A model generated the notes under the pieces. It had not been told where the DNA came from. It saw nothing but the letters and a program-made list of their open reading frames with translations, and did not search any database. A stretch of 59,618 nucleotides of DNA from Candidatus Omnitrophota bacterium (lineage in GTDB: Bacteria; Omnitrophota; Gorgyraeia; JABMRN01; RBG-13-46-9): positions 164,265 through 223,882 of the forward strand of contig CP070780.1 in NCBI GenBank assembly GCA_020346285.1, read 5' to 3'. A program made the position numbers and the translations under genes. How positions within the stretch are numbered: the stretch's first letter is position 1; each line of letters starts with the position of its first letter. Of the stretch, positions 27,377 to 52,090 are shown one piece after another.

Positions 27377-28683
27377 TATCAGAAATTTAAAGCAGAAAAT
27401 AGAATGTAAGAAAGCAACTGTAGGTATAATAGGATTGGGCTATGTAGGGTTTCCGCTTGCTTTAACGTTTGCCAAGAATGGTTTTGGTGTTATCGGGATC
27501 GATATAGATAAAGATAGAATAAAAAAAATAAAGAAAGGTATTTCTTATATTACAGATGTTCCTAATACCGAGCTTAAGAATACCCTAAAGAAGAAAAAAT
27601 TTAAGGTCACCCAGGATGTTAAATCCATAAAGAAATTAGATGCCGTAATTATCTGCGTTCCGACACCGTTAGGTAAAGATAGAACACCCGATATTTCTTA
27701 TATAAGAGAAGCCGTTAGTAAAGTTAAAGACAATATACGGAAGGGACAAAATAGTTGTTCTCGAATCGACAACATATCCGGGAACGACAAAGGAGATACT
27801 TTTGCCGATATTGGAATCGACCGGTCTTAAAGAAGGAAAAGATTTTTATCTCGCTTTTTCTCCCGAAAGGATAGACCCAGGCAATGAAGTTTACAAGACA
27901 GAAAATACCCCGAAAATCATAGGCGGCCTTTCCAAAAAATCAACCCAGATTGCCAAGCTTCTTTACGATCAGGTTATAGAAGAGGTTATTCCCGTTTCCT
28001 CGGCAAACGCAGCAGAAATGGTAAAATTACTGGAGAATACGTTTCGAGTCGTAAACATCGCTCTTGTTAATGAAATAGCGACGCTATGCGATAAGCTTAA
28101 CATTGACATCTGGGAGATTATAAATGCGGCAAAAACCAAACCCTATGGCTTTATGCCTTTTTATCCGGGACCAGGGGTGGGGGGACATTGTATCCCGATT
28201 GACCCCTTGTATTTATCCTGGAAGGCGAAAGAACACGGATTTGAAACAAAATTTATAGATTTAGCCTCTTCTGTAAATGAATCCATGCCGCAATATATGA
28301 TAGAAAGATTAGAAAAGATATTATCTAATAGAAGAAAAATAATAGATAAATCGAAAATACTCATAATTGGAGTAGCTTATAAAAAAGATGTAATGGATTT
28401 GAGGGAATCGCCGGCTATAGCCGTTATAAATCTTTTGCAGAAAAGGGAAGCAAACATTTCTTACTTCGATCCTTATTTTCCTTTTCTCAAAATCAACAGT
28501 ATCGATATGAAACCCATAAGATTAAACGCCAATAACTTGAAAAAATATGACTGCGCACTGGTTATGACAGACCATTCAAACGTGGATTATAAATTTTTAG
28601 TGGATAACCTGAAACTTATTTTTGACACAAGAAATATCTTTGGCAAGCTGGGAATAAAGTCGAGAAATATAATTAAACTATAA
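27363..28683 (+). pseudogene. UDP-N-acetyl-hexosamine 6-dehydrogenase family (TviB/WbpA/WecC-like) interrupted by a 1-nt frameshift
   Basis: ORFs 27363..27830 and 27802..28683 together encode one enzyme (VGIIGLGYVGFPLAL; PGPGVGGHCIPIDP). At A-run 27748-27751 the first frame reads RKGQ-NSCS. The other frame carries the conserved continuation IVVLESTTYPGTTKEILLPILESTGL. One fewer A would restore the reading frame. Confidence 0.8.
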
Positions 28684-28701: not shown

Positions 28702-29247
28702 GTGAAAAAAACTTTAAGGACAACTCTGTGGTTTACGGGGCTTCCTTGTTCCGGGAAGACAACTTTGGCAAAAAGGTTAAAGGACCAGCTGGATAGGAAG
28801 GGGTTCGATACTACGCATCTTGATGGGGATGAAATAAGAGAGTCCTTAAATAAAGATTTAGGATTTTCCGAAGAGGACAGAAAAGAAAATTTAAGGCGGG
28901 TAGCTCATATCGCCAAACTTTTTAACCGGAGCGGTATATTTGTTATCGCGTCTTTTGTATCACCGACTAATGACTTAAGGAAAATGGTGAAGAAAATCAT
29001 AGGCGATTTTAAGCTGGTATATGTTAAATGCGACATAGACGAATGTAAAAAAAGAGACACCAAGGGAATGTATAAACGCGCGAGGCTCGGTGAAATTCCT
29101 GAATTTACAGGAATTTCCGCGCCTTTTGAAGAGCCGGACAGTGCCGATATGGTCGTTGATACTCGGAGAAACAATATAGAAGAGTGTGTAAAAATGGTTC
29201 TTGATAAATTAAATATCGGAAGCCAAAAAAGGATTTTAACAACATGA
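28702..29247 (+). CDS. cysC: adenylyl-sulfate (APS) kinase family P-loop kinase
   Basis: LWFTGLPCSGKTTLAKRL P-loop, LDGDEIR, FSEEDRKENLRRVAHIAKLF. GTG start 8 nt after the RBS aaggag. 181 aa. The true substrate could differ (see findings). Confidence 0.75.
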   Translation: MKKTLRTTLWFTGLPCSGKTTLAKRLKDQLDRKGFDTTHLDGDEIRESLNKDLGFSEEDRKENLRRVAHIAKLFNRSGIFVIASFVSPTNDLRKMVKKIIGDFKLVYVKCDIDECKKRDTKGMYKRARLGEIPEFTGISAPFEEPDSADMVVDTRRNNIEECVKMVLDKLNIGSQKRILTT

Positions 29248-30193: not shown

Positions 30194-31129
30194 ATGAAAA
30201 AGAAACTAATATTAATAACAGGCGGAGCAGGTTTTATTGGGTCGCATCTCTCTAGCTTCTTGATTAAAAAAGGGTATTTTGTGATATGCATGGATAATTT
30301 AATAACTGGCTCCAAGAATAATATCAAACATTTACTAAAACATAAAAACTTTAGATTCGTAAAACACGACGTGTCAAAATATATAAATATAAAAGGCAAA
30401 ATAGATTACGTTTTACACTTTGCTTCTCCTGCCAGCCCCGTTGATTATTTAAAATATCCGATAAAAACACTAAAGGTAGGTTCCTTGGGAACACATAATG
30501 CACTGGGAGTGGCCAAGAGAAAAAGTGCAAAATTTTTATTGGCTTCAACAAGCGAGGTATATGGAGATCCGCTTGTAAATCCTCAATCCGAAAAATATTG
30601 GGGCAACGTTAATCCTATAGGCGTGCGCGGTTGTTATGACGAATCGAAGAGATTTGCGGAAGCCATTACTATGGCTTATCACCGCACTCATAAGATAAAC
30701 ACAAAAATTGTACGTATATTCAATACATACGGCGAAAGGATGAGGAAAGAAGACGGTAGGGCAATACCTAATTTTATAAATCAGGTGCTAGAAAATAAAC
30801 CCATAACAGTTTATGGCAGTGGAACACAAACAAGAAGTTTCTGCTATATAAGAGATATGATAAATGGTATTTATAAGCTTATGTCTTCAGATTTAAATCA
30901 GCCTGTAAATATCGGAAATCAAAACGAAACCTCTATTCTAAAACTCGCAAATATAATCATAAAATTAACCGAATCCAAAAGCAAAATCGTGTATAAGCCT
31001 CTCCCAATAGATGATCCAAAAGTAAGAAAGCCCGATATAAGGTTGGCAAAATCTAGATTAAAATGGAGACCGAAAGTGTCCTTAAAGCAGGGATTGGTAG
31101 AAACTATCGAATATTTTAAAAAACTATGA
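30194..31129 (+). CDS. UDP-glucuronate decarboxylase (UDP-xylose synthase family)
   Basis: [31 protein letters not shown] (YxxxK), [10 protein letters not shown], as in UXS-type enzymes. 311 aa. Confidence 0.75.
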
Positions 31130-32274
31130 TACCGATACTCGATTTAAAAAGACAATATAAAACAATCGAAGACAAAGTAAAAGATATGCTACAGGAAATA
31201 GTAGAGAGTCAGTCGTTTGTATTGGGGAAGGAAGTAGAAAAGATCGAAGAAAACATCTCCCGGTACTGTGGCACAAAATTTGCAGTTGGCGTTGCCTCAG
31301 GCACAGATGCTTTGATTTTATCCTTGGCGGCGATGGGTATAGGGAAGGGCGACGAGGTAATCACGACACCCTTTACTTTTACGGCAACGGCCGAAGCTAT
31401 AGTGCACGCTGGCGCGAAACCGGTTTTTGTAGATATAGACCCAAAAACATATAACATAAACCCTGCACTTATCGAGAAGAAAATCACGAAAAGAACCAAA
31501 GCTATACTACCGGTCCATTTATACGGGCTATGTGCGGATATGGATCCTATCTTAAAAATAAGAGAGAAGCACGGTTTGAAAGTGCTTGAAGATTGCGCGC
31601 AGGCGATAGGCTCGAAATATAAAGGAAGAGCTACCGGCAGCATGGGCGATGGGGGCGCCATAAGCTTCTATCCAGGGAAGAACCTGGGATGTTTCGGTGA
31701 CGGCGGAATGGTAGTAACCAATGATAAAAAGATTTATGATAACATGAGGCTCCTTCGAAATCATGGCTCAGATAAAAGATATTACCACAAAGCTATCGGT
31801 TATAACAGCCGCCTGGACAACCTTCAGGCAGCTATATTAAATATAAAATTATCTCATCTTGATGGTTGGATAGAAAACCGCATTAAAATCGCGGAGTTCT
31901 TCACTAAAGAATTAAAGAATTTTCCTATTCAAACACCCTACACCCCTCCCGATTATAAACATTCTTTTCATCTCTATGTGTTAAGGACATCGCCGGCCGT
32001 AGAGATTATAAATTATTTAGCCGCAAAAGGCATAGAATCCAGAACTTATTATCCTGTGTCTTTACACCTTCAGGAGTGCTTTAATTTTTTAGGATACAAA
32101 AGAGGTGACTTCCCGGAGTCGGAAAAATTATCCCAAGGTAGCTTCGCCATTCCGATTTATCCTGAACTAACCTTGAAAGAAAAAACCTATATCGTAGATA
32201 CTATTAAGCAATTCCTTAATAAAACGTTTACAACGCTAAAAATAAAAAATGAAAATCACTTTTTTATACGTTAA
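31126..32274 (+). CDS. DegT/DnrJ/EryC1/StrS-family sugar aminotransferase (candidate PseC-equivalent by position only)
   Basis: [23 protein letters not shown]. Candidate PLP lysine in [25 protein letters not shown] overlap with the upstream gene. Confidence 0.8.
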
Positions 32275-33670
32275 TCCTAATAGATACACAGGCATCCCTG
32301 TAGGCCTCTCGTATCTTATCTCAATTTTGAAAAACGAAGGACACGAGCTTTCACTTTTTGATACGACTTTCTATGATTTCAATTACACCGATTTTAACCT
32401 TAGCGGAAACCTGCCACAAGCGGGTAAGGAAATAATCAACGGTTTTAAGCTTTTGGTAAAAAAGAAAAATCCGGATCTCGTAGGCGTAAGCTGTACCTCT
32501 GTGTGTTTAAATTTTGCTATTAAAATGCTGGAATCGCTAGAAAATAGACCTATAACTATTTTTGGTGGGGTCGGAGCCACGGTAGATTATACCGAATTAA
32601 TTAAAAAAGAAGTAGTTGATTATGTCTGCGTTGGATTTGGAGAGAAAACTTTGCCTATCTTCGTGAAAAATCTCGAAAATAAAAAAAGTGTCGAAGGTAT
32701 ACAAAACTTGGTTTATAAGAAGGAAAAGCAAGTAAAAATAAATGAGTTTTCTCAAATAGTGGATTTATCAAAAATTCCGATTCCCGATTGGAGCCTTTTT
32801 GACAAAAGACATTTTAAGAGAATTTTCAAGGGCAGGATTAAAAGATGGGGAAGCTTTCAACTCGTAAGAGGGTGTCCATTTAATTGCGCCTATTGTGTAA
32901 ACAATTATTATCACAAGACCCTGGGGATAAAAATAAACAGACTTCCCATTGAGAAGAGTATAGAGGAAATCAAAGTATTATCACAAAAATACCGACTCGA
33001 TATCATAAGGCTTTGCGATGAATGTTTCGGCTTCGGAAACCCGGAATATTACAGAAAATTTGCCAGGGCATATAAGAGGGAAGTAGGTCCGCCGACGATA
33101 GTAGCCACGAGGCCGGAAGCGATAACGCCGGAAACCATAGAAATATTGAAAGACCTAAAATGTATTTCTGTTTCTATCGGAATAGAGGCGGGTGACGAAG
33201 CCCAGAGGAAATGGATGCTGGATAGGAGAGTTTCCAACGAGATTATAAAAAGGGCATTTGATTTATTGTACAAAGCAGGGATTCGAACCTCGTCGTATAA
33301 TATAATCGGTTTTCCCGAAGACACAAGAAAGAAAATATTTGAAACAATAAAACTGAATAGGGAATGTAAGCCCGGCCATATAAATGTCTTTATATTCTCG
33401 CCCCTACCCAAAACCAAACTAAGGGATTATTGCCTGAAAAATGGTTTATTGGATACGACATCCGCAGTAGATTTTATAAAGAAAAGCATAGTTAAAAACA
33501 AAAACCTTACTAAGCAAGAACTATACGGGTTATTCCGCACTTTTGAATATTATATTAAACTGCCCGAATATGTATATCCTCTAATCAAGAGGGCCGAAAA
33601 GGGAGATAAAATCGGAAATATTATCTTTAACTTACTGAAGAAAGTGGCTATTTTGAGGTACGGTTACTAA
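32249..33670 (+). CDS. B12-binding-domain radical SAM protein (class B type)
   Basis: N-terminal B12-binding-like region (LVGVSCTS...TIFGGVGAT...VCVGFGE) followed by VRGCPFNCAYCVN. 26-nt overlap with the aminotransferase gene. Confidence 0.85.
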   Translation: MKITFLYVNPNRYTGIPVGLSYLISILKNEGHELSLFDTTFYDFNYTDFNLSGNLPQAGKEIINGFKLLVKKKNPDLVGVSCTSVCLNFAIKMLESLENRPITIFGGVGATVDYTELIKKEVVDYVCVGFGEKTLPIFVKNLENKKSVEGIQNLVYKKEKQVKINEFSQIVDLSKIPIPDWSLFDKRHFKRIFKGRIKRWGSFQLVRGCPFNCAYCVNNYYHKTLGIKINRLPIEKSIEEIKVLSQKYRLDIIRLCDECFGFGNPEYYRKFARAYKREVGPPTIVATRPEAITPETIEILKDLKCISVSIGIEAGDEAQRKWMLDRRVSNEIIKRAFDLLYKAGIRTSSYNIIGFPEDTRKKIFETIKLNRECKPGHINVFIFSPLPKTKLRDYCLKNGLLDTTSAVDFIKKSIVKNKNLTKQELYGLFRTFEYYIKLPEYVYPLIKRAEKGDKIGNIIFNLLKKVAILRYGY

Positions 33671-33699
33671 CCAGCATAAACAATAAATAGGGGGACACA

Positions 33700-34728
33700 A
33701 TGTTAGACAATAAAACCATTCTTATAACGGGTGGGACGGGTTCTTTTGGAAAGAAATTTACCGAAATAGCGTTTAAAGATTATAAACCGAAAAAGATAAT
33801 AATATTTAGCCGCGACGAATTTAAACAACACAAAATGGCAAAGAAATTTCCAACCTCAAAATTTAACATAAGGTATTTCATAGGGGATGTAAGAGACAGG
33901 GAAAGGCTTGAAAGAGCGTTTGAGAATATTGATTACGTTATACACGCCGCCGCGTTAAAACAAGTTCCTGCCCTTGAGTACAATCCGATTGAAGCGGTTA
34001 AAACAAACATTTTGGGGGCAAATAATATCGTTAACGCAGCCCTCGATAAAGGTATTGAGAAAGTAATCGCCCTATCAAGCGATAAGGCCGTGAATCCCGT
34101 AAATTTGTACGGCGCGACAAAATTAGTGGCGGAAAAAATATTTGTGGATGCCAATGCCTACGGCGGCAACCGTGTCAGGTTTTCTGTGGTGCGGTACGGC
34201 AATGTATTGGGTTCAAGGGGCAGCGTCATAGAACATTTCCTGAACCTTAAAAGCAAGAATATAAAAGAGTTCCCGATTACTGACCTGGAGATGACGCGTT
34301 TCTGGATGACGTTGGACGAGAGTGCCAAACTTGTAATCAGGGCGTTGCAAGAGACTGCGGGTGGTGAAATTTTCATTCCCAACATTCCTTCCATGAAACT
34401 CGTGGATTTAGCGAAGGCGACTGTGCCTGACTGTACCTTTAAGGTAATAGGGGTAAGGCCCGGAGAAAAAATTCATGAAAGTCTAATTTCCAGTGACGAA
34501 TCACGCAACACAAAGATATTTAACGGGCTATACGTGATTTTGCCACCATTTTTTCATACAAATGTTATCCCGAAGAAATATGAGAAGTTTTCTTCCGTGC
34601 CGAAGAACTTTATTTTCAGGAGTGATACAAACGATAGGTGGCTTACGGTGGAGGAAGTGCGCAAAATGATTTCAGGAGAGACTAAAGCTGCGGAGGTTAA
34701 AGAATGCCTGAAGACACCGCTCAATTAA
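33700..34728 (+). CDS. pseB: UDP-N-acetylglucosamine 4,6-dehydratase (inverting), PseB/FlaA1 type
   Basis: ILITGGTGSFGKKF, FIGDVRD, HAAALKQVP, YGATKLVAEK, VRYGNVLGSRGSV. 342 aa. The related FnlA/CapE enzymes cannot be fully excluded. Confidence 0.8.
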   Translation: MLDNKTILITGGTGSFGKKFTEIAFKDYKPKKIIIFSRDEFKQHKMAKKFPTSKFNIRYFIGDVRDRERLERAFENIDYVIHAAALKQVPALEYNPIEAVKTNILGANNIVNAALDKGIEKVIALSSDKAVNPVNLYGATKLVAEKIFVDANAYGGNRVRFSVVRYGNVLGSRGSVIEHFLNLKSKNIKEFPITDLEMTRFWMTLDESAKLVIRALQETAGGEIFIPNIPSMKLVDLAKATVPDCTFKVIGVRPGEKIHESLISSDESRNTKIFNGLYVILPPFFHTNVIPKKYEKFSSVPKNFIFRSDTNDRWLTVEEVRKMISGETKAAEVKECLKTPLN

Positions 34729-35348
34729 AAATATGGACCGGTAAATTCGGTAGGGAATACACGAACCGAAACACCCTTTCCCCGGATAAACTAGAAAAGC
34801 TTTACAGAGATAATTACGGCATAACAAGGACTGCCTTAAACAAGATGTTTCTGGATAAGCTGGATCGCTCTATGCGGATCCTTGAAGTAGGCTCGAACAT
34901 CGGGTTACAACTGGTGTGTCTTCAAAGGATGGGCTTTAAAAATTTGTACGGCATTGAATCGCAAGACTATGCGGTAGAGTTATGCAAAAAAAATACCAGA
35001 AACATTAAGATTATTAAGGGAAATGCCCTTAACCTGCCGTTTAAAGACGGGTATTTTGACCTTGTTTTTACCTCGGGGGTGCTTATACACATCAATCCAA
35101 GAGATATAAGAAAAGCAATGAAGGAAATACACCGCTCAAGCAATAAATATATATGGGGTTTTGAATATTATTCTAAAAAATATGAAGAAATTATCTATAG
35201 AGAGAAGAAAAACTTACTCTGGAAGGCAGACTTCCAGAAACTATACCTTGAGTCATTTAGTGATTTACGTTTAATAAAGAAAAAGCGCCTGAAATACCTG
35301 AAGAATCAAAATGTAGATATGATGTTTCTTCTCAAAAAAGGTAAATAA
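34704..35348 (+). CDS. class I SAM methyltransferase (resembles the pseudaminic-acid-cluster-associated methylase family)
   Basis: WTGKFGREYTNRN N-terminus and motif I ILEVGSNIGLQL. RBS ggaggt. Overlaps the pseB 3' end by 25 nt. Confidence 0.6.
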   Translation: MPEDTAQLKIWTGKFGREYTNRNTLSPDKLEKLYRDNYGITRTALNKMFLDKLDRSMRILEVGSNIGLQLVCLQRMGFKNLYGIESQDYAVELCKKNTRNIKIIKGNALNLPFKDGYFDLVFTSGVLIHINPRDIRKAMKEIHRSSNKYIWGFEYYSKKYEEIIYREKKNLLWKADFQKLYLESFSDLRLIKKKRLKYLKNQNVDMMFLLKKGK

Positions 35349-35351
35349 GCA

Positions 35352-36098
35352 ATGAAGATAGGTGCAATAGTTCAGGCAAGATATTCCTCGACAAGATTGC
35401 CGGGCAAGATTTTGAAGGAACTACCCTCTGGAAGTGGGATTACCGTATTGGATCAGGTTATTCGCCGGCTAAAAAGGTCTAAAAAAATAAATGAAATTAT
35501 TGTCAGCACAAGCCTTGAGAAAAGTGCCGATAGGATTCTTGCCGTAGCGAAACGGGAAGGCGTGGGGTATTTTAGGGGAAGCAAAGAAAATGTCCTATCG
35601 CGGTATTATTTGAGCGCCAAACGTAATAACTTAGACCTTATCGTAAGAATATGCAGCGACTGCCCGTGCATCGATCCGGGGGTGATAGATTCAGTTATAG
35701 AAAAACATATAAAGAAAAACGCGGATTACACCTCAAATACACTCGAGAGAACCTATCCGCGGGGACTCGACACAGAGGTTTTTAATTTTGATATTCTGGA
35801 GAAAACTTACAAGAATGCGAAAAAAAAATATGAAAAAGAACACGTTACGCCTTATATATGCGAAAACCCAACCCTTTTTAAAATCAGCCCCGTTACGGCG
35901 CCAAAAAAACTTTACGGGCCAGACATAAGAATTACATTAGATACGAATGAAGACTATGCGCTGCTTTGCGCGGTGTACAGCTTCTTATATACGCGAAATA
36001 AGTATTTTACCGCTTCTGATATTATCAGACTTTTTAAGAAAAAACCATGGCTTAAATTGATAAACAAAAACGTAATCCAAAAGAAAGTATCGGATTAA
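35352..36098 (+). CDS. SpsF/acylneuraminate-type cytidylyltransferase (candidate CMP-pseudaminic acid synthetase)
   Basis: GAIVQARYSSTRLPGKIL, FRGSKENVLSRYY, RICSDCPCIDP, YTSNT...YPRGLDTEVF. Confidence 0.6.
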   Translation: MKIGAIVQARYSSTRLPGKILKELPSGSGITVLDQVIRRLKRSKKINEIIVSTSLEKSADRILAVAKREGVGYFRGSKENVLSRYYLSAKRNNLDLIVRICSDCPCIDPGVIDSVIEKHIKKNADYTSNTLERTYPRGLDTEVFNFDILEKTYKNAKKKYEKEHVTPYICENPTLFKISPVTAPKKLYGPDIRITLDTNEDYALLCAVYSFLYTRNKYFTASDIIRLFKKKPWLKLINKNVIQKKVSD

Positions 36099-36246
36099 TG
36101 CGCCGTGAAAATATCTTTTCTCTATGATCAAAGGGGATGAATACGAGGTAATAAATTTTGGACTACCATTTAAGTCCAAAGAGTAATAGAGTACTAGCTG
36201 AAATTATGGCTGAGGAAATATTAAAAGCAAGGAATGTTCAGAACAA

Positions 36247-37128
36247 ATGAAAAAGCTTCTTATTACGGGCAGTTCCGGGATGCTGGGTAGTAGTTTGGTA
36301 TACGAAATCGGCGAGAAGTATAATATATACGGTATATATAGGAACCATCGGAATCCGGATTTAAAAAATCAATTTAAGGCCGACATAACCGATCGTAAAA
36401 AATTGGAAGACATCATTGGCGCCGTCAGGCCGGATTTTCTAATACACACCGCTGCATTAACTAACGTAGATACTTGCGAGAAAAATTTCGAATTAGCGCG
36501 TGCTACAAATTCACTGGCCACGCGAGATCTTGCGTCTATTCTTAAGTCATTAGGTACAAGGTTTATCTACATTTCAACGGAGTCTGTTTTTGACGGCAAA
36601 AAGGGAAATTACGATGAAACCGATGCGCCGTGCCCCATAAATAATTATGCAAAAACCAAACATGAAGGCGAAATATTTGTCGAACAATTATGCGATAATT
36701 TTGTTATTATTCGCACAACGATATTCGGCTGGAATCGCGTAAAAGAACCGGGGTCTTTCGCTGAATGGGTATACAAGAGTCTCCGAGATAAGCAAACAAT
36801 AAAGATGTTTACCGATGTAATATTCTCTCCAATTACCGTTAATACACTATCTTTATTAATAGACAGACTATTGCAAGCGGATTTTACGGGTACATTAAAT
36901 ATAGGTAGCAGGGATTCGGTAAGCAAGTGCAAATTCGGTATTTTTCTTGCCGAACTTTTCGGTTTTGATAAATCTTCCATAACACCCATTTCTGTAGATG
37001 GTTTCAAATTTGCCGCAAAAAGACCGAAGAATGTCAGCCTAAATGTGTCAAGGGCAGAGGGTATACTCGGCCCATTGCCGACGGTAGAAGATGAACTCGG
37101 GGTATTTCATGAGAAAAGAAGGCTCTAA
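36247..37128 (+). CDS. RmlD-like NAD(P)-dependent sugar reductase (SDR)
   Basis: LLITGSSGMLGS, YAKTKHEGE (YxxxK), IIRTTIFGWN. 293 aa. Confidence 0.65.
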   Translation: MKKLLITGSSGMLGSSLVYEIGEKYNIYGIYRNHRNPDLKNQFKADITDRKKLEDIIGAVRPDFLIHTAALTNVDTCEKNFELARATNSLATRDLASILKSLGTRFIYISTESVFDGKKGNYDETDAPCPINNYAKTKHEGEIFVEQLCDNFVIIRTTIFGWNRVKEPGSFAEWVYKSLRDKQTIKMFTDVIFSPITVNTLSLLIDRLLQADFTGTLNIGSRDSVSKCKFGIFLAELFGFDKSSITPISVDGFKFAAKRPKNVSLNVSRAEGILGPLPTVEDELGVFHEKRRL

Positions 37129-38143
37129 TAAAACAAGGGCATTGATATTGACCGAAGGCGGTAAAGATATCGGCTTGGGGCACATAACAAGGTGTATCTC
37201 GCTATGTCAGGCATTAGATGAGAGGAACATCGTACCCGAACTTATAATAAACGGAAAGGGCATAGTTTCGGACCTATTAAGGAATTGGAGATTTCAAATT
37301 TTCGACTGGCTTAAACTGAAGAGTAAAACATTCAAGATGGTAAGCGGGGCAGATATTGTTATTTGTGATTCTTTTCTGGCAGACATAAATTTTTATGAAA
37401 CCTTATCTAATCTGGTGAAGACACCGGTTTACATGGATGATAACAAACGGCTCGACTATCCCCGCGGCATAGTCGTAAATGTCTCCATCTACTCGGAAGA
37501 GTTCGATTATCCCGAGAAAGAAGATACTGTTTACCTGCTTGGTACTAAATATACGATTTTGAGAAAGGAATTTTGGAACATTCCGGAAAAAAAGATAAGA
37601 AGTAATGCCGAAAACATAATGGTTACTTTTGGCGGCGGCGACAGGAAAAGTATAACCCCCAGAATTATGGAATTTCTAAGAGATAAATACAGTGGATATA
37701 CAAAGAATATTATAGTTGGCAGAGGGTTTGGGTGCAAAAAAATGATTGAAAACCTGAAGGACAAAAAGACAAACTTAATATATGACCCCGATGCCGACCA
37801 AATGAAAAAGGTCATGCTAGAATCAGATATTGCCATTTCTGCTGGGGGTCAGACATTGTATGAGCTGGCACGGGTAGGAGTGCCTGTTGTAGGCATCTCG
37901 GCAGCGGAAAACCAATTAAGAAATCTTTATGGCTGGAAGAGGATCGGATTTTTGGAGTATGCCGGAAGTCACGATAGCAAAAATATTTTTTCGAATCTCA
38001 AATACGCCATTGATAAAATTCAACCGCATAAAGTAAGAATAAATCGCTCTATGATAGGAAGGAATATTGTCGATGGCAGAGGCTCACGCAGGGTGTGCAA
38101 TCAATTATTACAGAGGCAAGCCATATCTCGAGGTGCTAAATGA
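37109..38143 (+). CDS. PseG-like UDP-sugar hydrolase / GT28-type C-terminal domain protein
   Basis: N-terminal GGKDIGLGHITRCISLCQAL matches the PseG hallmark G.GH..R. C-terminal SAGGQTLYELARVGVP. The start could be 37091 or 37109. Confidence 0.6.
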   Translation: MRKEGSNKTRALILTEGGKDIGLGHITRCISLCQALDERNIVPELIINGKGIVSDLLRNWRFQIFDWLKLKSKTFKMVSGADIVICDSFLADINFYETLSNLVKTPVYMDDNKRLDYPRGIVVNVSIYSEEFDYPEKEDTVYLLGTKYTILRKEFWNIPEKKIRSNAENIMVTFGGGDRKSITPRIMEFLRDKYSGYTKNIIVGRGFGCKKMIENLKDKKTNLIYDPDADQMKKVMLESDIAISAGGQTLYELARVGVPVVGISAAENQLRNLYGWKRIGFLEYAGSHDSKNIFSNLKYAIDKIQPHKVRINRSMIGRNIVDGRGSRRVCNQLLQRQAISRGAK

Positions 38144-39936
38144 TTATTTTGGGTGTAAGTTATCTGGCAGACGCAGGCGCATGTGTCGTTAAAGACGGTG
38201 TTCTAAAAAGCGTTATTAACGAAGAACGGCTGAACAGAATAAAGTTATTCTACGGAATCCCTGAGATGTCTATCAAATGGTGTCTCAAAGATGCCGGCCT
38301 AAAAATGGAGGATGTCGATGTCATCGTAACCCAAGGATATTGTTCGGATGAACCCCGCATTGAATTTATCGATCATGGCTTGAAGAATGAAGCTGGCCGG
38401 AGAGAAGAAGCATTCGAATATGTATATGATAAAATAAGGCATTCCCGCCTATCGCCGAAAGATAAAAGACAGAAGATTGACGAGGTAAAAATGCGCTATG
38501 GGCACGAAAATACCGTCATGTTTAGTCGCAATATAACCATAGTCCGGCAGCTTAGAAAGTTCAAAAAGCCCATTAAGGTTGTCGAACATCATATCTCGCA
38601 CGCCGCAGGCGCCTATTTTGCCAGCGGATGGAATAGCGCTTATGTTATAACCAGTGACGGTTGGGGCGAGGTAGAATCCAATATTTTTTGCAGGGCTCGC
38701 GACGGTAAATTAGAAAAAATATATTACTCCCATTCGTTTGACTCATTGGGTTATTTTTACGGCGGCATAACCAGGGCATTGGGATTTACCCCTAAACGAC
38801 ATGAGGGTAAAGTGCTGAGCCTTGCCGCATGCGGAAGACCCCAAAAAGCCATGCCGTGGATGAAAAAGATGATTTATTACAATCCGAAAGAGAAAAGATT
38901 CGAAGCCGGGTTTGAAAGCGGCATTTATACCGCTAAATTTGAGAATGCAGTACTTGAAAGACTCGTAAAGAGACATAAGAAAGAAGATGTAGCGGCCGCC
39001 GCACAAAAAGTATTGGAAAAAACGGTATGTGAATATGTTGAAGATGTGGTCCCCGCGAATTCCAAGCTTGTGGTGGCGGGAGGCATATTTGCCAATGTGC
39101 GTTTAAACCAGAAAATATCGGAACTTCCCAATATCCGGGATATCTTCGTATATCCGCAAATGACGGACGGCGGATTAGCGGCAGGCAGTGCTTTATATCT
39201 TTATTCGAGACAGAAGAAATTAAGATCTGTCGCGATTGATTCCCTTTACAAAGGACCGGCCTTTGACAATGCCAGCGTGCTTAAAGAGATTAAACGATTC
39301 GGTTATGCGCACAGATACCATGAAGATATCGAGAAGAAAATCGCAGAGTTACTTACACAGAATAATGTGGTTATGCGTTTTACAGGAAGAATGGAATACG
39401 GACCCAGGGCTTTGGGAAATAGGTCTATTCTCTTTACTACAATGGATAGAACAGTTAACGGTTGGCTGAATGCGGCGCTTGGAAGAAGCAAATTTATGCC
39501 GTTTGCCCCCGTTACTTTAAAAGAAAAAGCGCAAGATTGCTATAAGAATATAAGAAATTGTTGGAGAAGGGCGCTGTATATGACGATCACATTCGATTGC
39601 ACTGATTGGATGAAGAAAATATCGCCTGGTGTTGTCCACATAGACGGAACGGCAAGGCCGCAGCTGGTCACCAAGGATTCAAATCCATCGCTTTATAAGA
39701 TTTTGAAACATTATTATAGATTGTCAGGCATTCCAAGCCTGATCAATACAAGTTTTAATATGCATGAGGAACCGATAGTATGTTCACCGCAGGATGCACT
39801 GCACGCGTTTCATGAAAGCAAATTAAAATACCTCGCTATCGAAAATTATTTAGTAAGCCTTGAACGCGATGACATTTTATTTCAGGCCAACAATTGTAAG
39901 AAGGGCTATGGCCAAGATTGTAAGGCTCGGGAATAA
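38140..39936 (+). CDS. NodU/CmcH-family carbamoyltransferase
   Basis: N-terminal ILGVSYLADAGACVVKDG...NEERLNRIK. C-terminal GPRALGNRSIL, FMPFAPV, VHIDGTARPQ, INTSFNMHEEPIVCSP. 598 aa. Confidence 0.85.
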   Translation: MIILGVSYLADAGACVVKDGVLKSVINEERLNRIKLFYGIPEMSIKWCLKDAGLKMEDVDVIVTQGYCSDEPRIEFIDHGLKNEAGRREEAFEYVYDKIRHSRLSPKDKRQKIDEVKMRYGHENTVMFSRNITIVRQLRKFKKPIKVVEHHISHAAGAYFASGWNSAYVITSDGWGEVESNIFCRARDGKLEKIYYSHSFDSLGYFYGGITRALGFTPKRHEGKVLSLAACGRPQKAMPWMKKMIYYNPKEKRFEAGFESGIYTAKFENAVLERLVKRHKKEDVAAAAQKVLEKTVCEYVEDVVPANSKLVVAGGIFANVRLNQKISELPNIRDIFVYPQMTDGGLAAGSALYLYSRQKKLRSVAIDSLYKGPAFDNASVLKEIKRFGYAHRYHEDIEKKIAELLTQNNVVMRFTGRMEYGPRALGNRSILFTTMDRTVNGWLNAALGRSKFMPFAPVTLKEKAQDCYKNIRNCWRRALYMTITFDCTDWMKKISPGVVHIDGTARPQLVTKDSNPSLYKILKHYYRLSGIPSLINTSFNMHEEPIVCSPQDALHAFHESKLKYLAIENYLVSLERDDILFQANNCKKGYGQDCKARE

Positions 39937-39985
39937 AAAAATAGGCGAAGGATTTCCGACTTTTAGGGCAGAAGCTGGAGGATAA

Positions 39986-40555
39986 ATGGGAATTTACAAA
40001 AAGAAGACATGTAGGAACAGAGACCAGTTGAGGAAGACCGCAATAGTCGGAAAATCTCCGAAGATTGTAGGTCCAATTGTTCTAAACAATGTAAAGAGAG
40101 GGCAACTCGTCATAGGCGATTATGCTATCTTGAGATATAGCAAACTCTTTTGCTTTGGCAAGGGTAAGCTGACAATAGGGAATTATTGTTACCTGGGGGA
40201 TTTTACGCAAATAGATGCTGCAGAAGAGGTAACAATCGGCAATTACTGCATGTTGTCTAATAGAATCGTGATACAAGATCATACAAGCCATCCGTTATGT
40301 CCGAGAAAAAGGAGGAAACAGTTGATCGGCCTGCAGAAAACCCCGACGAATGTATATGATACTGTAATCAAAAAGGTTGCGATAGAGGACGATGTCTGGA
40401 TCGGTATGGATGCCCTTATTCTGAAAGGGGTCACTATAGGTAGGGGCTCCATCGTGGCTGCGAGGGCTGTAGTTACGAGTGACGTTCCTTCCTATTCTAT
40501 AGTTGCAGGCAATCCAGCACGGGTCGTTAAAACTATCAAGGAAGGCTTGAAATGA
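39986..40555 (+). CDS. hexapeptide-repeat (left-handed beta-helix) acetyltransferase
   Basis: VWIGMDALILKGVTIGRGSIVAARAVVTSDVPSYSIVAGNPARVV. RBS ggagga. Confidence 0.8.
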   Translation: MGIYKKKTCRNRDQLRKTAIVGKSPKIVGPIVLNNVKRGQLVIGDYAILRYSKLFCFGKGKLTIGNYCYLGDFTQIDAAEEVTIGNYCMLSNRIVIQDHTSHPLCPRKRRKQLIGLQKTPTNVYDTVIKKVAIEDDVWIGMDALILKGVTIGRGSIVAARAVVTSDVPSYSIVAGNPARVVKTIKEGLK

Positions 40556-41616
40556 AGAACAAAGTAAGAGTAAAAATTGACCGAGAGAGATGTATTGGTG
40601 ATAATCAGCCTTGTTTTATAGTCGCAGAGATCTCGGCAAATCACGGACAAAATTTTAATAGGGCAATCTCGCTTGTTAAAGAGGCAAAGATAAGGGGCGC
40701 AGATGCAGTGAAATTCCAGACATATACAGCCGATACCTTAACCATAAACAGCAGAAAAAAATATTTTGCAATTAAACACCCTAAGTGGGGAGGGCAAACT
40801 TTATACGAATTATATGAAAAAGCATATACCCCCTGGAAGTGGTTTAAAAAATTGAAGAGGATAGCCGAAGACATGGGGCTAATATTTTTTTCCACCGCCT
40901 TTGACAGAACTGCTATTGATTTTTTGGAAGAATTAGGGGTTCCGATGCATAAGATATCCTCTTTTGAACTCGTGGATTTGCCGCTCATTGAATACGCAGC
41001 AAAGACCAATAAGCCCCTGATACTATCGACGGGAATGTCAACGATTCTTGAGGTCAAAGAGGCAGTTAGAACTGCGAAAATGGCAGGTGCAAAAGATATA
41101 ATTCTATTGAAGTGTGTCAGTAGTTACCCTGCAAATCCCAAAGAGATGGATTTGAATACCATAGCGCATATGAGAAAGCTATTCCGTTGCCCGATAGGCC
41201 TTTCCGATCATACGATGGACATAGGGGCTTCTGTCGCAGCCGTTTCACTTGGGGCAAAGATGGTCGAAAAGCATTTTGCGCTATCTCGTAAGTTCCAGAC
41301 ACCTGATAGCTTCTTTTCGCTTGAGCCCCGGGAATTCGAAAATCTTGCAAAAAATATAAGAATTGCAGAACAGGCACTGGGCCATATCCGCTCCGGATTG
41401 ACCGATGAAGAAAAGAAGAATCGGATTTTCAGAAGATCCCTTTTTGCGGTTAAAGATATTAAAAAGGGAGAAGTATTTAGCAAAGAAAATATTAAATCCA
41501 TAAGACCCGGGCATGGTCTACCGCCCAAGTATTTGAATTCGATATTAAACAAAAAAGCAAGGAGAAATATTTCTAAAGGGGTCCCCTTAACATTGGGTTT
41601 ACTTAAACCCAAATAA
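40552..41616 (+). CDS. pseI: pseudaminic acid synthase (NeuB family)
   Basis: CFIVAEISANHGQ, GADAVKFQTYTADTLTI, WGGQTLYELYEKAYTPWKW, KISSFELVDLPLIEY, STGMS, and a C-terminal SAF-like domain (FAVKDIKKGEVF). Confidence 0.85.
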   Translation: MKNKVRVKIDRERCIGDNQPCFIVAEISANHGQNFNRAISLVKEAKIRGADAVKFQTYTADTLTINSRKKYFAIKHPKWGGQTLYELYEKAYTPWKWFKKLKRIAEDMGLIFFSTAFDRTAIDFLEELGVPMHKISSFELVDLPLIEYAAKTNKPLILSTGMSTILEVKEAVRTAKMAGAKDIILLKCVSSYPANPKEMDLNTIAHMRKLFRCPIGLSDHTMDIGASVAAVSLGAKMVEKHFALSRKFQTPDSFFSLEPREFENLAKNIRIAEQALGHIRSGLTDEEKKNRIFRRSLFAVKDIKKGEVFSKENIKSIRPGHGLPPKYLNSILNKKARRNISKGVPLTLGLLKPK

Positions 41617-41622
41617 GAAAAT

Positions 41623-43068
41623 ATGCATATTTTATTAGTTCATCCACCATGCAGAACAGCGACTATTATTCCGCTCGGTTTGGGCTATATAGCCAGCGCA
41701 CTAAGAGAAAACGGACATAAGGTGTCGCTTATGGATTTGAATTTCGAGAATAAATCCTTTTCTGCTATTGAAAAAGACCTCGCTCGCCTGGAATATGACA
41801 TTATCGGGATAGGGGGCCTTAGCACGACATATAATTTTGTAAAAGATTTTTCTAATTTAGCCAAGAAGATAAAGCCGAAAGTAAAAATAATAGCGGGAAA
41901 TATGGTCTCTACCGCTAGTCCGGAACTTCTGCTTCAAAATTCGCAAGTGGACATATGCGTAATCAACGAGGGCGAAGAAACCCTAAAGGAATTAGTGTAT
42001 AGAATAAAGAATTTTCCGGATATAGAAGGCGTCAAAGGAATAGTTTTTAAAAAAAATGAACAAATTATCGTGACTAATCCCAGAGAAAGAATAAAGAATT
42101 TGGATAAGTTACCACTTCCGGCATGGGACCTTTTTTCAATGGAATATTATGTTAATGAGCCCATTCTCAATGAATATGGCAGAAAAAGCATCTCTGTCTC
42201 AACTGCAAGGGGTTGTCCCTTTCAATGTATTTATTGCTCGCGACCCTTTGGTTCGCTTGTATATAAGCGCTCTGTCGAGAATATTATCGCAGAGATAAAA
42301 ACATTAATAAAACGCTATAAAATAAAGTTTGTGGCCTTTTCCGACAATCTATTTGTAATGGATAAAAATTGGGTCAGGGAATTTTGCGATGCTCTCCTCC
42401 GAGAAAAAATTAAGATTGGCTGGACGGCGTCCGCAAGATTGAACCTGGTGGATATGCCGTTACTCAGGAAAATGAAAAAAGCCGGTTGCGAGGCCTTGGG
42501 TTACGGCTTTGAATCAGGAAGCCAGAAAATATTAGATAATATGAAAAAAGGCATCAATGTAGCCCAGGCAGAAAGAGCGGTTGCTCTCACCAGAAAAGCC
42601 GGTATTAGCGTAGACGGTTCGTTTATGATAGGCATGATCGGGGAGACGAAAGAAACCGTTAATGAAAGCGTTGATTTTATAAAAAGAACAGGTTTAACGC
42701 TACACAGGTTTTTCTATACGACGCCATACCCTAAAACAGCGCTCTATGAAATGGCAAGAAAAATGAATAGAATTCCAGACGATGAAGATAAATATGTCGG
42801 CTCTTTAGGCGAGATGTACAATACGCCCCTGGTTAATTTAACCGACATGACGGATGAGGAGCTTAAGAGCTTGAAGGAAAAGGCAGAAAGAAAAATCAGG
42901 GAGAATTTCAGCCTGAGGACCAGAATGGAGATTCTGCATGAAGACCTAAGACGAATTTCCGCAAATATTAAAAAGCGCATAAAGACGAAAGGTATTCTAG
43001 CAACCCTCAGTTGGTCTTTAGGCAAGATAAGCCAGAGATTAAAGATAAAAGAGAGAATAAGGCATTGA
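41623..43068 (+). CDS. B12-binding-domain radical SAM protein (class B type)
   Basis: HILLVHPP...IIGIGGLSTT...IIAGNMVST...CVINEGE followed by ARGCPFQCIYCSRPF. 481 aa. Confidence 0.85.
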   Translation: MHILLVHPPCRTATIIPLGLGYIASALRENGHKVSLMDLNFENKSFSAIEKDLARLEYDIIGIGGLSTTYNFVKDFSNLAKKIKPKVKIIAGNMVSTASPELLLQNSQVDICVINEGEETLKELVYRIKNFPDIEGVKGIVFKKNEQIIVTNPRERIKNLDKLPLPAWDLFSMEYYVNEPILNEYGRKSISVSTARGCPFQCIYCSRPFGSLVYKRSVENIIAEIKTLIKRYKIKFVAFSDNLFVMDKNWVREFCDALLREKIKIGWTASARLNLVDMPLLRKMKKAGCEALGYGFESGSQKILDNMKKGINVAQAERAVALTRKAGISVDGSFMIGMIGETKETVNESVDFIKRTGLTLHRFFYTTPYPKTALYEMARKMNRIPDDEDKYVGSLGEMYNTPLVNLTDMTDEELKSLKEKAERKIRENFSLRTRMEILHEDLRRISANIKKRIKTKGILATLSWSLGKISQRLKIKERIRH

Positions 43069-44930
43069 GCAAAATACGGTTTTTAATCTTTTTAAAGAAT
43101 AGATTAATACGGTTCCTGAAAAAGAACGCCTCTCAAAAGAAAGTTATAATCATAAATAACTATGATAAAACCGATGTATTGGCGGAAGCGATAAGACATT
43201 CTTTAGCTTATTTTGGAACTAATACCAATATTTTATGCTTTAAATCGAGAATTCCCGAGGAATTTAGCGCTTTTCAAGATAAGATTACCCTGTCAGAGGA
43301 TTACCCGGCTTATGAGGATTATCTAAAAATAGACGATTACGTTTTTAATTCTATTTCGAAGAATTGGGATGGTGGGGTGAAAGAAAAATTCAAGGACACT
43401 TTTATTTATCGTGGTATCGAGTTGGCAAGAATAGCGGAGTATGATTTGCAGCTTTTTTTAGTTCCAAGAATCAAGGCATTAATCGTTGTCGGTCGGGCAA
43501 TGAAAAAAGAAGATTATAAAGCAGCCTTTATTATCGATTGTAACAATGAATTTGGTAATTTTGACAAACTTTTGCAGCAGCATTATCGTGTTCCGACCGA
43601 TTATCTCAAGATACATGAAAAATGCGCATTACAAGATGTAATAAGACGAAGGATGTCTTCTGTCCTATCGAGTTTAACCGATATTATAGCCCCTCTATTT
43701 ATTCCTATTATCCAAAGGAAGAAAGAAGCAAAATTTATTGATGCCAGGCTCTTTTATCAACTTGGCGCAAAGAAGCCAGATAATTTTCTTCTGATTCCTT
43801 TTGAAAAAGGCCTGAAATTACGTTTGAGGAGCCTTTTCCAGAATGGCGGATATATCCCTTTTAATTTAGTCTCTGACGTAGAGAAGAAAAGAAAGAACGA
43901 TTTAAAGAAATTTGATGTCCGCAACCTAGAGAACCGGTTCGTTTTTGAAGATATGCCTTATTGGGAAGTGGTAGAAGATAAAATAAAAACACTGATTTAC
44001 AGAGATTTCGCTAAATTCAGGAAAAATATAGATATCTTGGCTGGTGCGCATAAGAGATATAATATAAAATCCATAATCCTTAAAAACGATGTAAAGACAT
44101 TGGCGAAAACTATGGTGCTCTCATCAAAAAGGCTTAATATACCAACCCTTGTGATTCAACATGGGATACTGGCAGAACCCAATGGGCATGATCTTATTTT
44201 GGCAGATAAAGTTGCTGTATGGGGGAATCGCGCCGTTCGTTGGTATAAGAATTTTGGCAATGATTCAAATAAGATGGTAGTAACAGGAAATCATACCTTA
44301 AATAAGGCATCTCATTATATGGATCTAAATGAAAATAAAAGTTTTCTCAAGCAATTGGGTATTATAAAAAAAGGGCATGTAGTAACATTTTTCACAACAA
44401 GCGGAGGGGGCACGTCTCGATTGTCGGCTTTCGAAAATCATGATATAAGCTTTAATTTAATCCGGGATATGATTAAAGCAGTTAGATCGATTGGCAATAC
44501 CAACTTGATTATCAAGCTGCATCCAAACGAGAGTATAAGAACTTTTGCAAAATTGCTTAACCGAGAAAGCAGGACTACCATGGTTATCAAGGATAGTATA
44601 GATACGCGTAAGCTTATGGCAATATCAGATTTAGTGGTGATAGGAGGCGGTGGCTCTACACTCGGCTTAGAGGCAATAATGATGAAAAAGCCGCTTATCG
44701 TGATAAACCTATATAAAAGACAGGATTTAGTTCCATATGTAGAAAAGAATGTAGCTATCGGCGCTTATACGAGAGATGACATCGAAAGGGCTATTAAAAA
44801 TGGCCTATATGACGATAATGTGAAAAGTAAAATGGATTCGGCAAGAGACGATTTTATAAACGATTTTGTTTACAAAGCCGATGGCAAGGCCGGAGAGCGG
44901 ATAGTAAAGTTAATAGAAAACCTTCAATAG
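43011..44930 (+). CDS. unknown protein with a C-terminal GT-B-like (TagF/KpsS-like?) region; candidate glycosyl- or nonulosonate-transferase
   Basis: Long ORF with C-terminal patterns VIQHGILAEP...KVAVWGN...VVTGN, LIIKLHPNES and VVIGGGGSTLGLEAIMMKKPLIV. Start uncertain: ATG 43011 overlaps the upstream gene by 58 nt, and TTG 43065 is the alternative. Confidence 0.35.
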   Translation: MVFRQDKPEIKDKRENKALSKIRFLIFLKNRLIRFLKKNASQKKVIIINNYDKTDVLAEAIRHSLAYFGTNTNILCFKSRIPEEFSAFQDKITLSEDYPAYEDYLKIDDYVFNSISKNWDGGVKEKFKDTFIYRGIELARIAEYDLQLFLVPRIKALIVVGRAMKKEDYKAAFIIDCNNEFGNFDKLLQQHYRVPTDYLKIHEKCALQDVIRRRMSSVLSSLTDIIAPLFIPIIQRKKEAKFIDARLFYQLGAKKPDNFLLIPFEKGLKLRLRSLFQNGGYIPFNLVSDVEKKRKNDLKKFDVRNLENRFVFEDMPYWEVVEDKIKTLIYRDFAKFRKNIDILAGAHKRYNIKSIILKNDVKTLAKTMVLSSKRLNIPTLVIQHGILAEPNGHDLILADKVAVWGNRAVRWYKNFGNDSNKMVVTGNHTLNKASHYMDLNENKSFLKQLGIIKKGHVVTFFTTSGGGTSRLSAFENHDISFNLIRDMIKAVRSIGNTNLIIKLHPNESIRTFAKLLNRESRTTMVIKDSIDTRKLMAISDLVVIGGGGSTLGLEAIMMKKPLIVINLYKRQDLVPYVEKNVAIGAYTRDDIERAIKNGLYDDNVKSKMDSARDDFINDFVYKADGKAGERIVKLIENLQ

Positions 44931-51306: not shown

Positions 51307-51320
51307 AAAGGGAGGACGGA

Positions 51321-51944: not shown

Positions 51945-52068
51945 GATATTAATATATGAAAACCGACAACAAAACAAAAACATATTTTGAAGGGAAAACG
52001 GCGATTTCGATACTTCCTACGATAGTCCCCAGAAGCTTACGGATATTGTAAGGAGATTGTCCTGAGGG

Positions 52069-52082
52069 TTTCCTATAGGAAA
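52069..52082. promoter_or_regulatory. 14-nt perfect palindrome TTTCCTATAGGAAA overlapping the presumed RBS of the 2-epimerase gene
   Basis: Read directly. It lies 9 nt upstream of the ATG at 52091, in a 146-nt gap that is one of the few real gaps in the locus. Confidence 0.4.
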
Positions 52083-52090
52083 GAATAAAA

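Follow-up and report, generated by a model that had tools for sequence, protein, structure and literature searches.

The 59.6-kb stretch considered here (59,618 nucleotides; hereafter the window) makes up an entire contig of a metagenome-assembled genome (MAG) of Candidatus Omnitrophota, and nearly all of it is one co-directional surface-glycan island. Its block at 31126-43068 holds genes for a pseudaminic acid (Pse)-type nonulosonate together with a reductase, a carbamoyltransferase and other enzymes foreign to the usual pathway. All twelve open reading frames (ORFs) of this block lie on the + strand, uninterrupted and mostly overlapping or abutting. The MAG is 1.43 Mb in size and 91% complete, and its 107 contigs had been concatenated with 100-N spacers in the supplied genome sequence; related sequence was found in sediment metagenomes. 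Family assignment relied on scores against NCBIfam/TIGRFAM cut-offs, on Pfam domains and on sequence comparison with the PDB. Every gene listed for the block in an earlier note on the window is present and intact, and the Pse-associated methylase, RmlD-like reductase, carbamoyltransferase and two B12-type radical S-adenosylmethionine (SAM) enzymes named there are confirmed by profile matches. The features are given below.

31126-32274, + strand, DegT-family aminotransferase of the WbpE/QdtB/DesV (C-3) type (Pfam DegT, 411 bits)
32249-33670, + strand, radical SAM enzyme 1, B12-binding (Pfam PF02310 and PF04055)
33700-34728, + strand, PseB (TIGR03589, 469 bits; cut-off 408)
34704-35348, + strand, Pse-associated class-I SAM methyltransferase (TIGR03587, 176 bits; cut-off 112)
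35352-36098, + strand, CTP_transf_3 cytidylyltransferase (Pfam CTP_transf_3, 103 bits)
36247-37128, + strand, stand-alone RmlD-like short-chain dehydrogenase/reductase (SDR) (TIGR01214, 187 bits; cut-off 224)
37091-38143, + strand, PseG-like UDP-sugar hydrolase (TIGR03590, 141.5 bits, E 4e-41)
38140-39936, + strand, O-carbamoyltransferase of the TobZ/NodU/NovN family (Pfam Carbam_trans_N and Carbam_trans_C)
39986-40555, + strand, left-handed beta-helix (LbH) acetyltransferase of the O-acetyltransferase type (Pfam hexapeptide match)
40552-41616, + strand, PseI, the nonulosonate synthase that joins phosphoenolpyruvate (PEP) and a hexose (TIGR03586, 457 bits; cut-off 340)
41623-43068, + strand, radical SAM enzyme 2, B12-binding (Pfam PF02310 and PF04055)
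43011-44930, + strand, 639-aa protein, beyond the block as delimited in the earlier note, with a C-terminal half like BFO_1060/TIGR04396 surface-carbohydrate proteins

In the canonical pathway, PseC aminates C-4 of the PseB product and PseH acetylates the amine, after which PseG, PseI and PseF follow. The frequency of these genes was taken from a survey of the phylum, in which 71 of 401 sampled genomes hold a PseI above the cut-off; 60 further PseI neighbourhoods and six earlier loci were scored with the window proteins and with reference proteins of relatives, and a Pse locus was counted where PseB and PseI lie on one strand within 12 kb (n = 47). In the window, PseB and PseI had already been recognized from their motifs, and both pass their NCBIfam cut-offs, which supports the claim that a nonulosonic acid pathway built on them is present. 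The PseB-type dehydratase is the only one of the MAG (single copy by tblastn) and has H. pylori FlaA1 as its best PDB match (2gn4, 361 bits; Pen, 228 bits). The competing assignment of this gene to FnlA/FnlB-type 6-deoxyhexosamine enzymes, which the earlier note had raised against its own view, was dropped, as the FnlA model yields 231 bits for a cut-off of 730 and the protein scores as PseB. The synthase gives 319 bits with the NeuB model (cut-off 400) and contains NeuB and SAF domains.

Two further core genes had been credited with weaker motifs. The PseG-like protein, present as stated though with its start at 37091 rather than 37109, comes just under its cut-off of 153.55 bits, covers 272 of 280 profile positions and is syntenic with the PseG genes of relatives; phmmer returned no PDB match for it. 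It lacks the GNAT domain that relatives carry fused to PseG, the orthologue in the same-family genome G071 being a 488-aa PseG-GNAT fusion. The PseF-like cytidylyltransferase scores only 15 bits against the PseF model TIGR03584 (cut-off 205.7). Homologues of this enzyme, 34-64% identical, occur in 38 of the 47 Pse loci, and judging from its family it is probably a CMP-nonulosonate synthetase, an analogue of PseF. The methylase is found in 10 of the 47.

What the locus lacks is a canonical PseC and a GNAT-type PseH. No canonical PseC was detected in the MAG, where the best DegT protein reaches 307 bits for a TIGR03588 cut-off of 423.5. The absence of a GNAT-type PseH, observed earlier near the block, extends to the whole MAG, in which the PseH model TIGR03585 has no match at E ≤ 0.01 and tblastn with the GNAT domains of relatives found none. 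Ordinary loci of the phylum are differently equipped: a canonical PseC stands beside PseB in 43 of the 47 (490-520 bits in six tested examples), PseG occurs in 39, and a recognizable GNAT, often fused to PseG, in 26. A carbamoyltransferase is present in one survey locus alone, L085, which also carries an RmlD-like gene and is without both PseC and GNAT; when it is set aside, 43 of 46 ordinary Pse loci have canonical PseC.

The reductase at 36247 stays below the RmlD equivalog cut-off, and the window's true RmlD at 26474 attains 304 bits. Its best PDB matches are nevertheless RmlD structures, Pal not being matched, and its SDR motifs GSSGMLG, STE and YAKTK (glycine-rich loop, Ser/Thr and YxxxK) align with those of the true RmlD. 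The PseB product belongs stereochemically to the 6-deoxy-L-hexos-4-uloses, which RmlD-family enzymes reduce, and it is proposed from these likenesses that 36247 is a 4-ketoreductase acting on that product. Its partner at 38140 contains a Kae1-like Carbam_trans_N domain (148 bits) and a YrdC-like Carbam_trans_C domain (184 bits), a two-domain architecture common to TobZ, NovN, GdmN and NodU. The PDB matches of 38140 are 7xb6 (223 bits), NovN (186), TobZ (181) and GdmN (174), so that its closest solved relatives are all O-carbamoyltransferases, which transfer to hydroxyls. Enzymes of the TobZ/NovN/GdmN/NodU type O-carbamoylate hydroxyls with carbamoyl phosphate and ATP, their known substrates being antibiotics and Nod factors; to our knowledge, none acts on a nonulosonate or a nucleotide-sugar precursor. 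It is proposed that 38140 carbamoylates the new 4-OH of the hexose, which becomes the 7-OH of the nonulosonate.

A homologue search with 38140 recovered a clade of orthologues 59-71% identical to it and set among the same genes. Altogether, ten other loci of this type were found, either through carbamoyltransferase homologues or in the phylum survey, with contexts from NCBI, JGI, ENA and Logan that were checked by tblastn. Besides L085, they are ordered as follows (RmlDL, RmlD-like; CARB, carbamoyltransferase; CTP, cytidylyltransferase; AT3, class-III aminotransferase; AKR, aldo-keto reductase; MT, methyltransferase; HTH, helix-turn-helix; rSAM, radical SAM enzyme).

L132, HTH-PseB-CTP-RmlDL-PseG-CARB-MT-PseI
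L133, PseB-CTP-RmlDL-PseG-CARB-PseI
L134, PseB-AKR-CTP-AT3-RmlDL-PseG-CARB-PseI
L135, MarR-PseB-CTP-RmlDL-PseG-CARB-PseI
L137, CTP-AT3-RmlDL-PseG-CARB-PseI
L138, CARB-RmlDL-PseB-...-PseI
L139, PseB-RmlDL-CARB-...-PseI
L140, HTH-PseB-GNAT-CTP-Gfo-DegT-RmlDL-PseG-CARB-PseI
L141, PseB-RmlDL-CARB-rSAM-CTP-PseG/GNAT-PseI

In the 11 loci together (window, L085, L132-L135 and L137-L141), canonical PseC is never found (0/11) and a stand-alone RmlD-like gene always is (11/11); in the window and the 10 others alike, the RmlD-like gene and the carbamoyltransferase are contiguous with PseB, PseG or PseI. Fisher's exact test, comparing the first eight loci with the remaining 46 of the survey, gave p = 1.6e-7 for PseC absence and p = 1e-9 for RmlD-like presence, values that are indicative only, as the two samples were ascertained differently (by carbamoyltransferase and by PseI search). 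The genes at 36247 and 38140 thus belong together as a conserved pair, found repeatedly with PseB, PseG and PseI in loci without canonical PseC, and are not miscellaneous decorations. The position of the PseH GNAT, between PseG and PseI, is held across loci by the carbamoyltransferase, and not, as had been suggested, by the hexapeptide acetyltransferase at 39986. RmlD-like sequences do occur next to canonical PseC in five loci (L061, 4159-6333; L079, L083, L088 and L118), which could be held against a 4-reductase role. This argument was set aside, as all five are RmlD-like::PseC fusions of 709-730 aa, adjoining PseB, that form a clade of their own (100/99 support) apart from the stand-alone genes.

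The LbH enzyme at 39986 is nearly unique to this MAG among the scored loci. It matches WbbJ (85 bits) and also WcaF, Vat and Maa, its PDB matches are Maa, Vat and NeuO, and the NeuD/PglB model matches only its C-terminal 50 residues; by sequence it resembles O-acetyltransferases rather than N-acetyltransferases of the PglD/NeuD type. A separate 4.3-kb contig binned with the MAG (G000:C1:1356680-1360962; L128 5996-10278) carries the 3' end of the methylase, the cytidylyltransferase, the RmlD-like gene, PseG, the LbH gene and the first 282 codons of PseI, with 83-86% nucleotide identity to window positions 35102-41399. It is without exactly the carbamoyltransferase gene and a 156-nt spacer, so that the LbH gene directly follows PseG. 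Because its read depth is lower and patchy, this contig is probably a co-binned strain variant; such a variant would make an O-acetyl form instead of an O-carbamoyl form, and it fits the idea of interchangeable O-acyl donors. A second copy of the cassette inserted in ssb, with a PseI-SSB fusion, was also considered and turned out to be an artefact of the N spacer between joined contigs.

Considered together, these gene contents and family likenesses point to a rewired CMP-Pse-type pathway, in which the PseC and PseH steps would be replaced by a 4-ketoreductase and by O-acyl or O-carbamoyl transfer, a reading to which we give an even chance. PseB, identified by family assignment, would turn UDP-GlcNAc into UDP-2-acetamido-2,6-dideoxy-beta-L-arabino-hexos-4-ulose, and the RmlD-like enzyme would reduce C-4 to yield UDP-6-deoxy-L-AltNAc or its C-4 epimer. 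The carbamoyltransferase, with carbamoyl phosphate and ATP, would form the 4-O-carbamate, at whatever stage, and the LbH enzyme may serve as a second or alternative acyl donor, the new hydroxyl being O-carbamoylated and/or O-acetylated. PseG would then take off UDP, and PseI with PEP would produce 5-acetamido-7-O-carbamoyl-3,5,9-trideoxy-non-2-ulosonic acid (C12H20N2O9, monoisotopic mass 336.117), which the CTP_transf_3 enzyme would convert to the CMP-sugar. Further modifications may come from the methylase and the two B12-domain radical SAM enzymes, and the protein at 43011 is a candidate transferase for the finished nonulosonate. In heavy-atom count and shape, an O-carbamate equals a 4-acetamido group, and this common heavy-atom skeleton would allow PseG and PseI to take the altered sugar as substrate.

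The product is very probably other than canonical Pse5Ac7Ac. The earlier prediction of a Pse-like nonulosonate with unusual decoration thus survives in its non-canonical product, but not in its treatment of the reductase and carbamoyltransferase as loose tailoring enzymes. Its closest part is the mention of reduced positions, the reduced site most likely being C-4 of the hexose and hence C-7 of the nonulosonate. A bolder proposal, which we put forward tentatively and incline to doubt, is that the reductase and carbamoyltransferase together form a portable module of two genes that takes the place of PseC and PseH and defines undescribed 7-O-carbamoyl/7-O-acetyl 7-deamino Pse analogues in which the carbamate mimics the N-acetyl group. 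If so, B12-domain radical SAM chemistry would further alter the sugar in this lineage, for example by C-methylation or deoxygenation; coexisting strains that differ by the presence of the carbamoyltransferase would switch their surface antigen between carbamate and acetate; and the reductase step would be the missing route to fusaminic-type trideoxy nonulosonates.

Several observations weigh against the replacement of PseC and PseH, and the chief of them is that the aminotransferase at 31126 might act as a PseC analogue. It lies two genes upstream of PseB. Moreover, the Pse locus of G071 has a PseG-GNAT fusion and no RmlD-like gene, with no canonical PseC across the 97%-complete genome; none was found in other genomes of that family either. 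In G071, a non-canonical DegT enzyme probably supplies the 4-amine, as a GNAT needs an amine, and the orthologue of 31126 is the nearest candidate. Among the carbamoyltransferase-type loci, 5 of 11 also carry a GNAT, and several have a class-III aminotransferase or a Gfo/DegT pair; given these GNATs and aminotransferases, an amine is made somewhere in those pathways. PseI, as judged from its sequence, gives no independent sign of a changed substrate. In addition, 38140 could come into play at a later stage, with the free nonulosonate, its CMP-activated form or the completed glycan as substrate. Enzyme identities are at the family level, with substrates, step order and stereochemistry read from gene content and synteny, and absence from a MAG that is 91% complete in 107 contigs is not absolute.

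The main alternative is that the product is a true 5,7-diamino pseudaminic acid, for which 31126 would serve as PseC, 39986 would N-acetylate, and the rest would be add-on tailoring such as 4-O- or 8-O-carbamoylation. The gene at 31126 belongs to the same co-directional run, and PseC is its best NCBIfam match (TIGR03588), albeit far below the cut-off at 265 against 423.5 bits. G071, without canonical PseC in its genome, has an orthologous DegT gene (68% identical) beside its PseG-GNAT locus; LbH N-acetyltransferases serve in the legionaminic pathway; and PseI is without a sequence signature of a changed substrate. When the PseIs of carbamoyltransferase-type loci were examined as a possible distinct subtype, they proved not to be a clade, being scattered in the PseI tree (10 changes for 11 rows, with at least 5 independent placements forced by well-supported branches), which fits module swapping on a backbone tolerating both substrates; no alignment column separates the locus types (best p = 0.0016, uncorrected over ~350 columns). 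However, 31126 groups with C-3 aminotransferases in the PDB ranking (7b0d 370 bits, QdtB 332, DesV 311, WbpE 286), with PseC distant at 130 bits and PglE at 121. The earlier description of this protein as PglE/WbpE-like rather than PseC-like is accordingly right for WbpE and QdtB but not for PglE, which is no closer than PseC; nor is 31126 the only nearby aminotransferase, as a second DegT gene lies at 49097. The gene at 31126 travels as a block with an SDR at 30194 and an epimerase at 29244, and its G071 orthologue likewise adjoins an SDR, 77% identical. An HTH or MarR gene stands between such upstream genes and PseB in L054 (G071), L132, L135 and L140, which suggests that they are a unit of their own. 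The membership of 31126 in the Pse module is uncertain. Moreover, 39986 is of the O-acetyltransferase type, and a diamino product leaves the reductase without a role and the coupling of reductase and carbamoyltransferase with PseC loss in 11 of 11 loci without explanation. A diamino product is therefore regarded here as unlikely, though it deserves serious attention.

It is rather improbable, in our estimation, that a separate hexosamine donor, UDP-6-deoxy-L-AltNAc or its O-carbamoyl form, is the product of PseB and the RmlD-like enzyme (alone or together with the carbamoyltransferase), while PseG, PseI and the cytidylyltransferase use another precursor or the uncarbamoylated pool to give a plain 7-hydroxy trideoxy nonulosonate. 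Such a division would suit Fusobacterium nucleatum 25586, where 6-deoxy-L-AltNAc is itself a residue beside a trideoxy nonulosonate, and the contiguous PseB-RmlDL-CARB arrangement, apart from PseG, in L139 and L141. Against it, PseG lies between the reductase and carbamoyltransferase genes, with the synthase gene directly after them, in L132-L135, L137 and L140 (an MT gene intervenes in L132, and L085 has them in another order), and the surroundings encode nothing else that could supply PseG and PseI with a substrate. That the locus is a decaying or chimeric mosaic with no defined product, arising from recombination or mis-assembly, seems very improbable. The MAG is of low coverage and in 107 contigs, a dehydrogenase 3.5 kb upstream is frameshifted, and a strain-variant contig of the same cassette was co-binned; yet the twelve ORFs are intact with conserved catalytic motifs, and the same gene order occurs in independent NCBI, JGI, ENA and Logan assemblies.

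Compared with the CMP-Pse pathway of H. pylori and C. jejuni, the window is alike in PseB and PseI, both of which pass as equivalogs, and in having a cytidylyltransferase, its PseG-like protein scoring near the PseG cut-off, and the proposed route would keep the same six-step logic: dehydrate, modify C-4, cap, hydrolyse UDP, condense with PEP and activate with CTP. It differs in lacking a PseC-type aminotransferase and a GNAT PseH, in the place of which are the RmlD-like reductase, the O-carbamoyltransferase and the LbH O-acetyltransferase; its cytidylyltransferase is not a PseF equivalog, and the methylase and two B12-domain radical SAM enzymes are extra. The UDP-L-RhaNAc/L-QuiNAc and L-FucNAc pathways (WbvB/WbvR/WbvD; FnlA/B/C) are similar in that a UDP-GlcNAc 4,6-dehydratase is followed by a reductase of the 4-keto-6-deoxy-L-sugar, WbvR being RmlD-like as is 36247. 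In the window, however, the dehydratase is of the PseB type, the 2-epimerase of those pathways is not adjacent, and PseG and PseI follow. The seven-enzyme Pse pathway of Bacillus thuringiensis, in which Pen and Pal stand in for PseB and the additional SDR contributes to forming the 4-keto sugar, is alike only in having an extra SDR within the Pse locus; a Pen/Pal route was rejected for the window, as 33700 matches FlaA1 far better than Pen (361 and 228 bits) and 36247 matches RmlD, not Pal.

A natural precedent for the backbone comes from the O-antigen of F. nucleatum ATCC 25586, which contains 6-deoxy-L-AltNAc and 5-acetimidoylamino-3,5,9-trideoxy-non-2-ulosonic acid (Vinogradov et al. 2017, via PMC13014188, PMC7371886). 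This fusaminic-type acid, described in 2020 as the single reported trideoxy nonulosonate (PMC13014188, PMC7371886), bears a hydroxyl at C-7 where an amino group would otherwise stand, and so the 7-hydroxy backbone exists in nature. The accompanying 6-deoxy-L-AltNAc is exactly the hexose that would be expected from PseB and a 4-reductase. The acid differs from the proposed product in its 5-acetimidoyl group and its lack of a carbamate, and its configuration is tentatively given as L-glycero-L-gluco. No description of fusaminic-type biosynthetic genes was found in these papers (PMC13014188, PMC7371886). In six of the carbamoyltransferase-type loci (L132, L133, L135, L137, L138 and L139), HisH-like and HisF-like genes are accompanied by a gene for a ~390-aa protein without a Pfam match that is probably WbuX-like, a trio that suggests a 5-acetimidoyl group as in fusaminic acid; it is absent from the window and its MAG. 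Literature searches turned up nothing relevant that connects Pse or nonulosonic acids to carbamoyl(transferase), Omnitrophota or radical SAM enzymes, and no published description of a reductase/carbamoyltransferase Pse pathway was found.

The locus is probably a variant of the known Pse pathway that recurs in uncultured bacteria, and the sugar it makes is probably a carbamate-bearing one not described before. Nonulosonic acids play a major part in how phages, predators, hosts and lectins recognize bacterial surfaces, and only a handful of backbone types are known. If the proposed pathway is true, its replacement of the C-7 amine by an O-carbamate would extend the known nonulosonate backbones by a new class, provide a genetic handle on the fusaminic-type trideoxy nonulosonate, and offer enzymes for the chemo-enzymatic synthesis of Pse analogues, one reducing the 4-keto group of the PseB product and one O-carbamoylating a sugar. 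Since many uncultured bacteria carry the cassette, its sugar may be a common one in sediments and groundwater.

The two radical SAM enzymes have the domain layout of class B (cobalamin-dependent) radical SAM methyltransferases, with an N-terminal B12-binding domain and a radical SAM core, and carry intact cysteine motifs, CPFNCAYC (CxxxCxxC) at residue 209 in 32249 and CPFQCIYC at residue 198 in 41623, and neither reaches the cut-off of a curated model. The best match of both among solved structures is AprD4 (6fd2, 58 bits for 32249; 82 bits for 41623), a radical diol dehydratase that does not methylate; sugar C-methylation and AprD4-like dehydration or deoxygenation are both candidate activities. 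Homologues of 32249, 32% identical, lie upstream of PseB in L132 and L133. Of 14 fetched neighbourhoods, 8 have an orthologue of 41623 (37-68% identity) within a Pse locus, usually in the order PseB-PseC-rSAM-CTP-PseG/GNAT-PseI, so that the 41623 clade is associated with nonulosonate pathways generally, not with the carbamate variant. Searching the genome contigs with 41623 yielded one distant match without Pse context. In the phylum, B12-domain radical SAM homologues occur in 281 of 401 genomes, and such an enzyme is present in 17 of the 47 survey loci. The protein encoded at 43011, a candidate transferase for the nonulosonate by family likeness, scores 75 bits with NF046086 (cut-off 200) and 45 bits with TIGR04396; it is syntenic in G071 at 48% identity, with weaker relatives (24-26%) in G117 (L056) and G370 (L105).

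The Pse locus of G071, the closest relative, shares with the window, at 45-80% identity, a backbone of epimerase-SDR-DegT...PseB...CTP-PseG-PseI-rSAM2-BFO_1060-like-unknown, in which PseG is the GNAT fusion and neither reductase nor carbamoyltransferase is present. Gains of the window relative to it are radical SAM enzyme 1, the methylase, the RmlD-like reductase, the carbamoyltransferase and the LbH enzyme. Other variations exist in the phylum. A class-III (Aminotran_3) aminotransferase (for example L061, 8721-10772), in some cases fused to a CTP_transf_3 cytidylyltransferase and frequently found together with an aldo-keto reductase, occurs in 15 of the 47 survey loci. A Gfo/Idh/MocA and DegT pair lies between the cytidylyltransferase and PseG in L129 (G397, same genus), L105 (G370), L100, L103 and L140, and may represent another non-canonical route to an amino group; L129 and L140 are without canonical PseC, L100 and L103 have it, and L105 starts within PseB, with its upstream side unseen.

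In the 1.43-Mb MAG, five NeuB-family and fourteen DegT-family matches were found, an unusually heavy gene investment in exotic surface sugars for a genome this small. A scan for promoter-like sites showed no excess over shuffled sequence, and terminator-like sites were in modest excess (27 against 18.2 in shuffles, sd 4.4); no informative operon boundaries were obtained from it. Elsewhere in the glycan island, an APS kinase at 28702-29247 hints at glycan sulfation, and a nucleotide-sugar dehydrogenase of the UDP-Glc/GlcNAc 6-dehydrogenase family at 27363-28683 is spread over two ORFs because of one frameshift near 27745, which may be an assembly error rather than a sign of a pseudogene, given the low read depth of the MAG. 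Downstream, at 49097-53212, genes for a DegT enzyme, an LbH acetyltransferase, a UDP-GlcNAc 2-epimerase and a Gfo/Idh/MocA oxidoreductase make up a block like WbpE/WbpB/WbpD/WbpI that suggests a 2,3-diacetamido-2,3-dideoxy-uronic acid pathway and is kept at 69-81% identity in G071.

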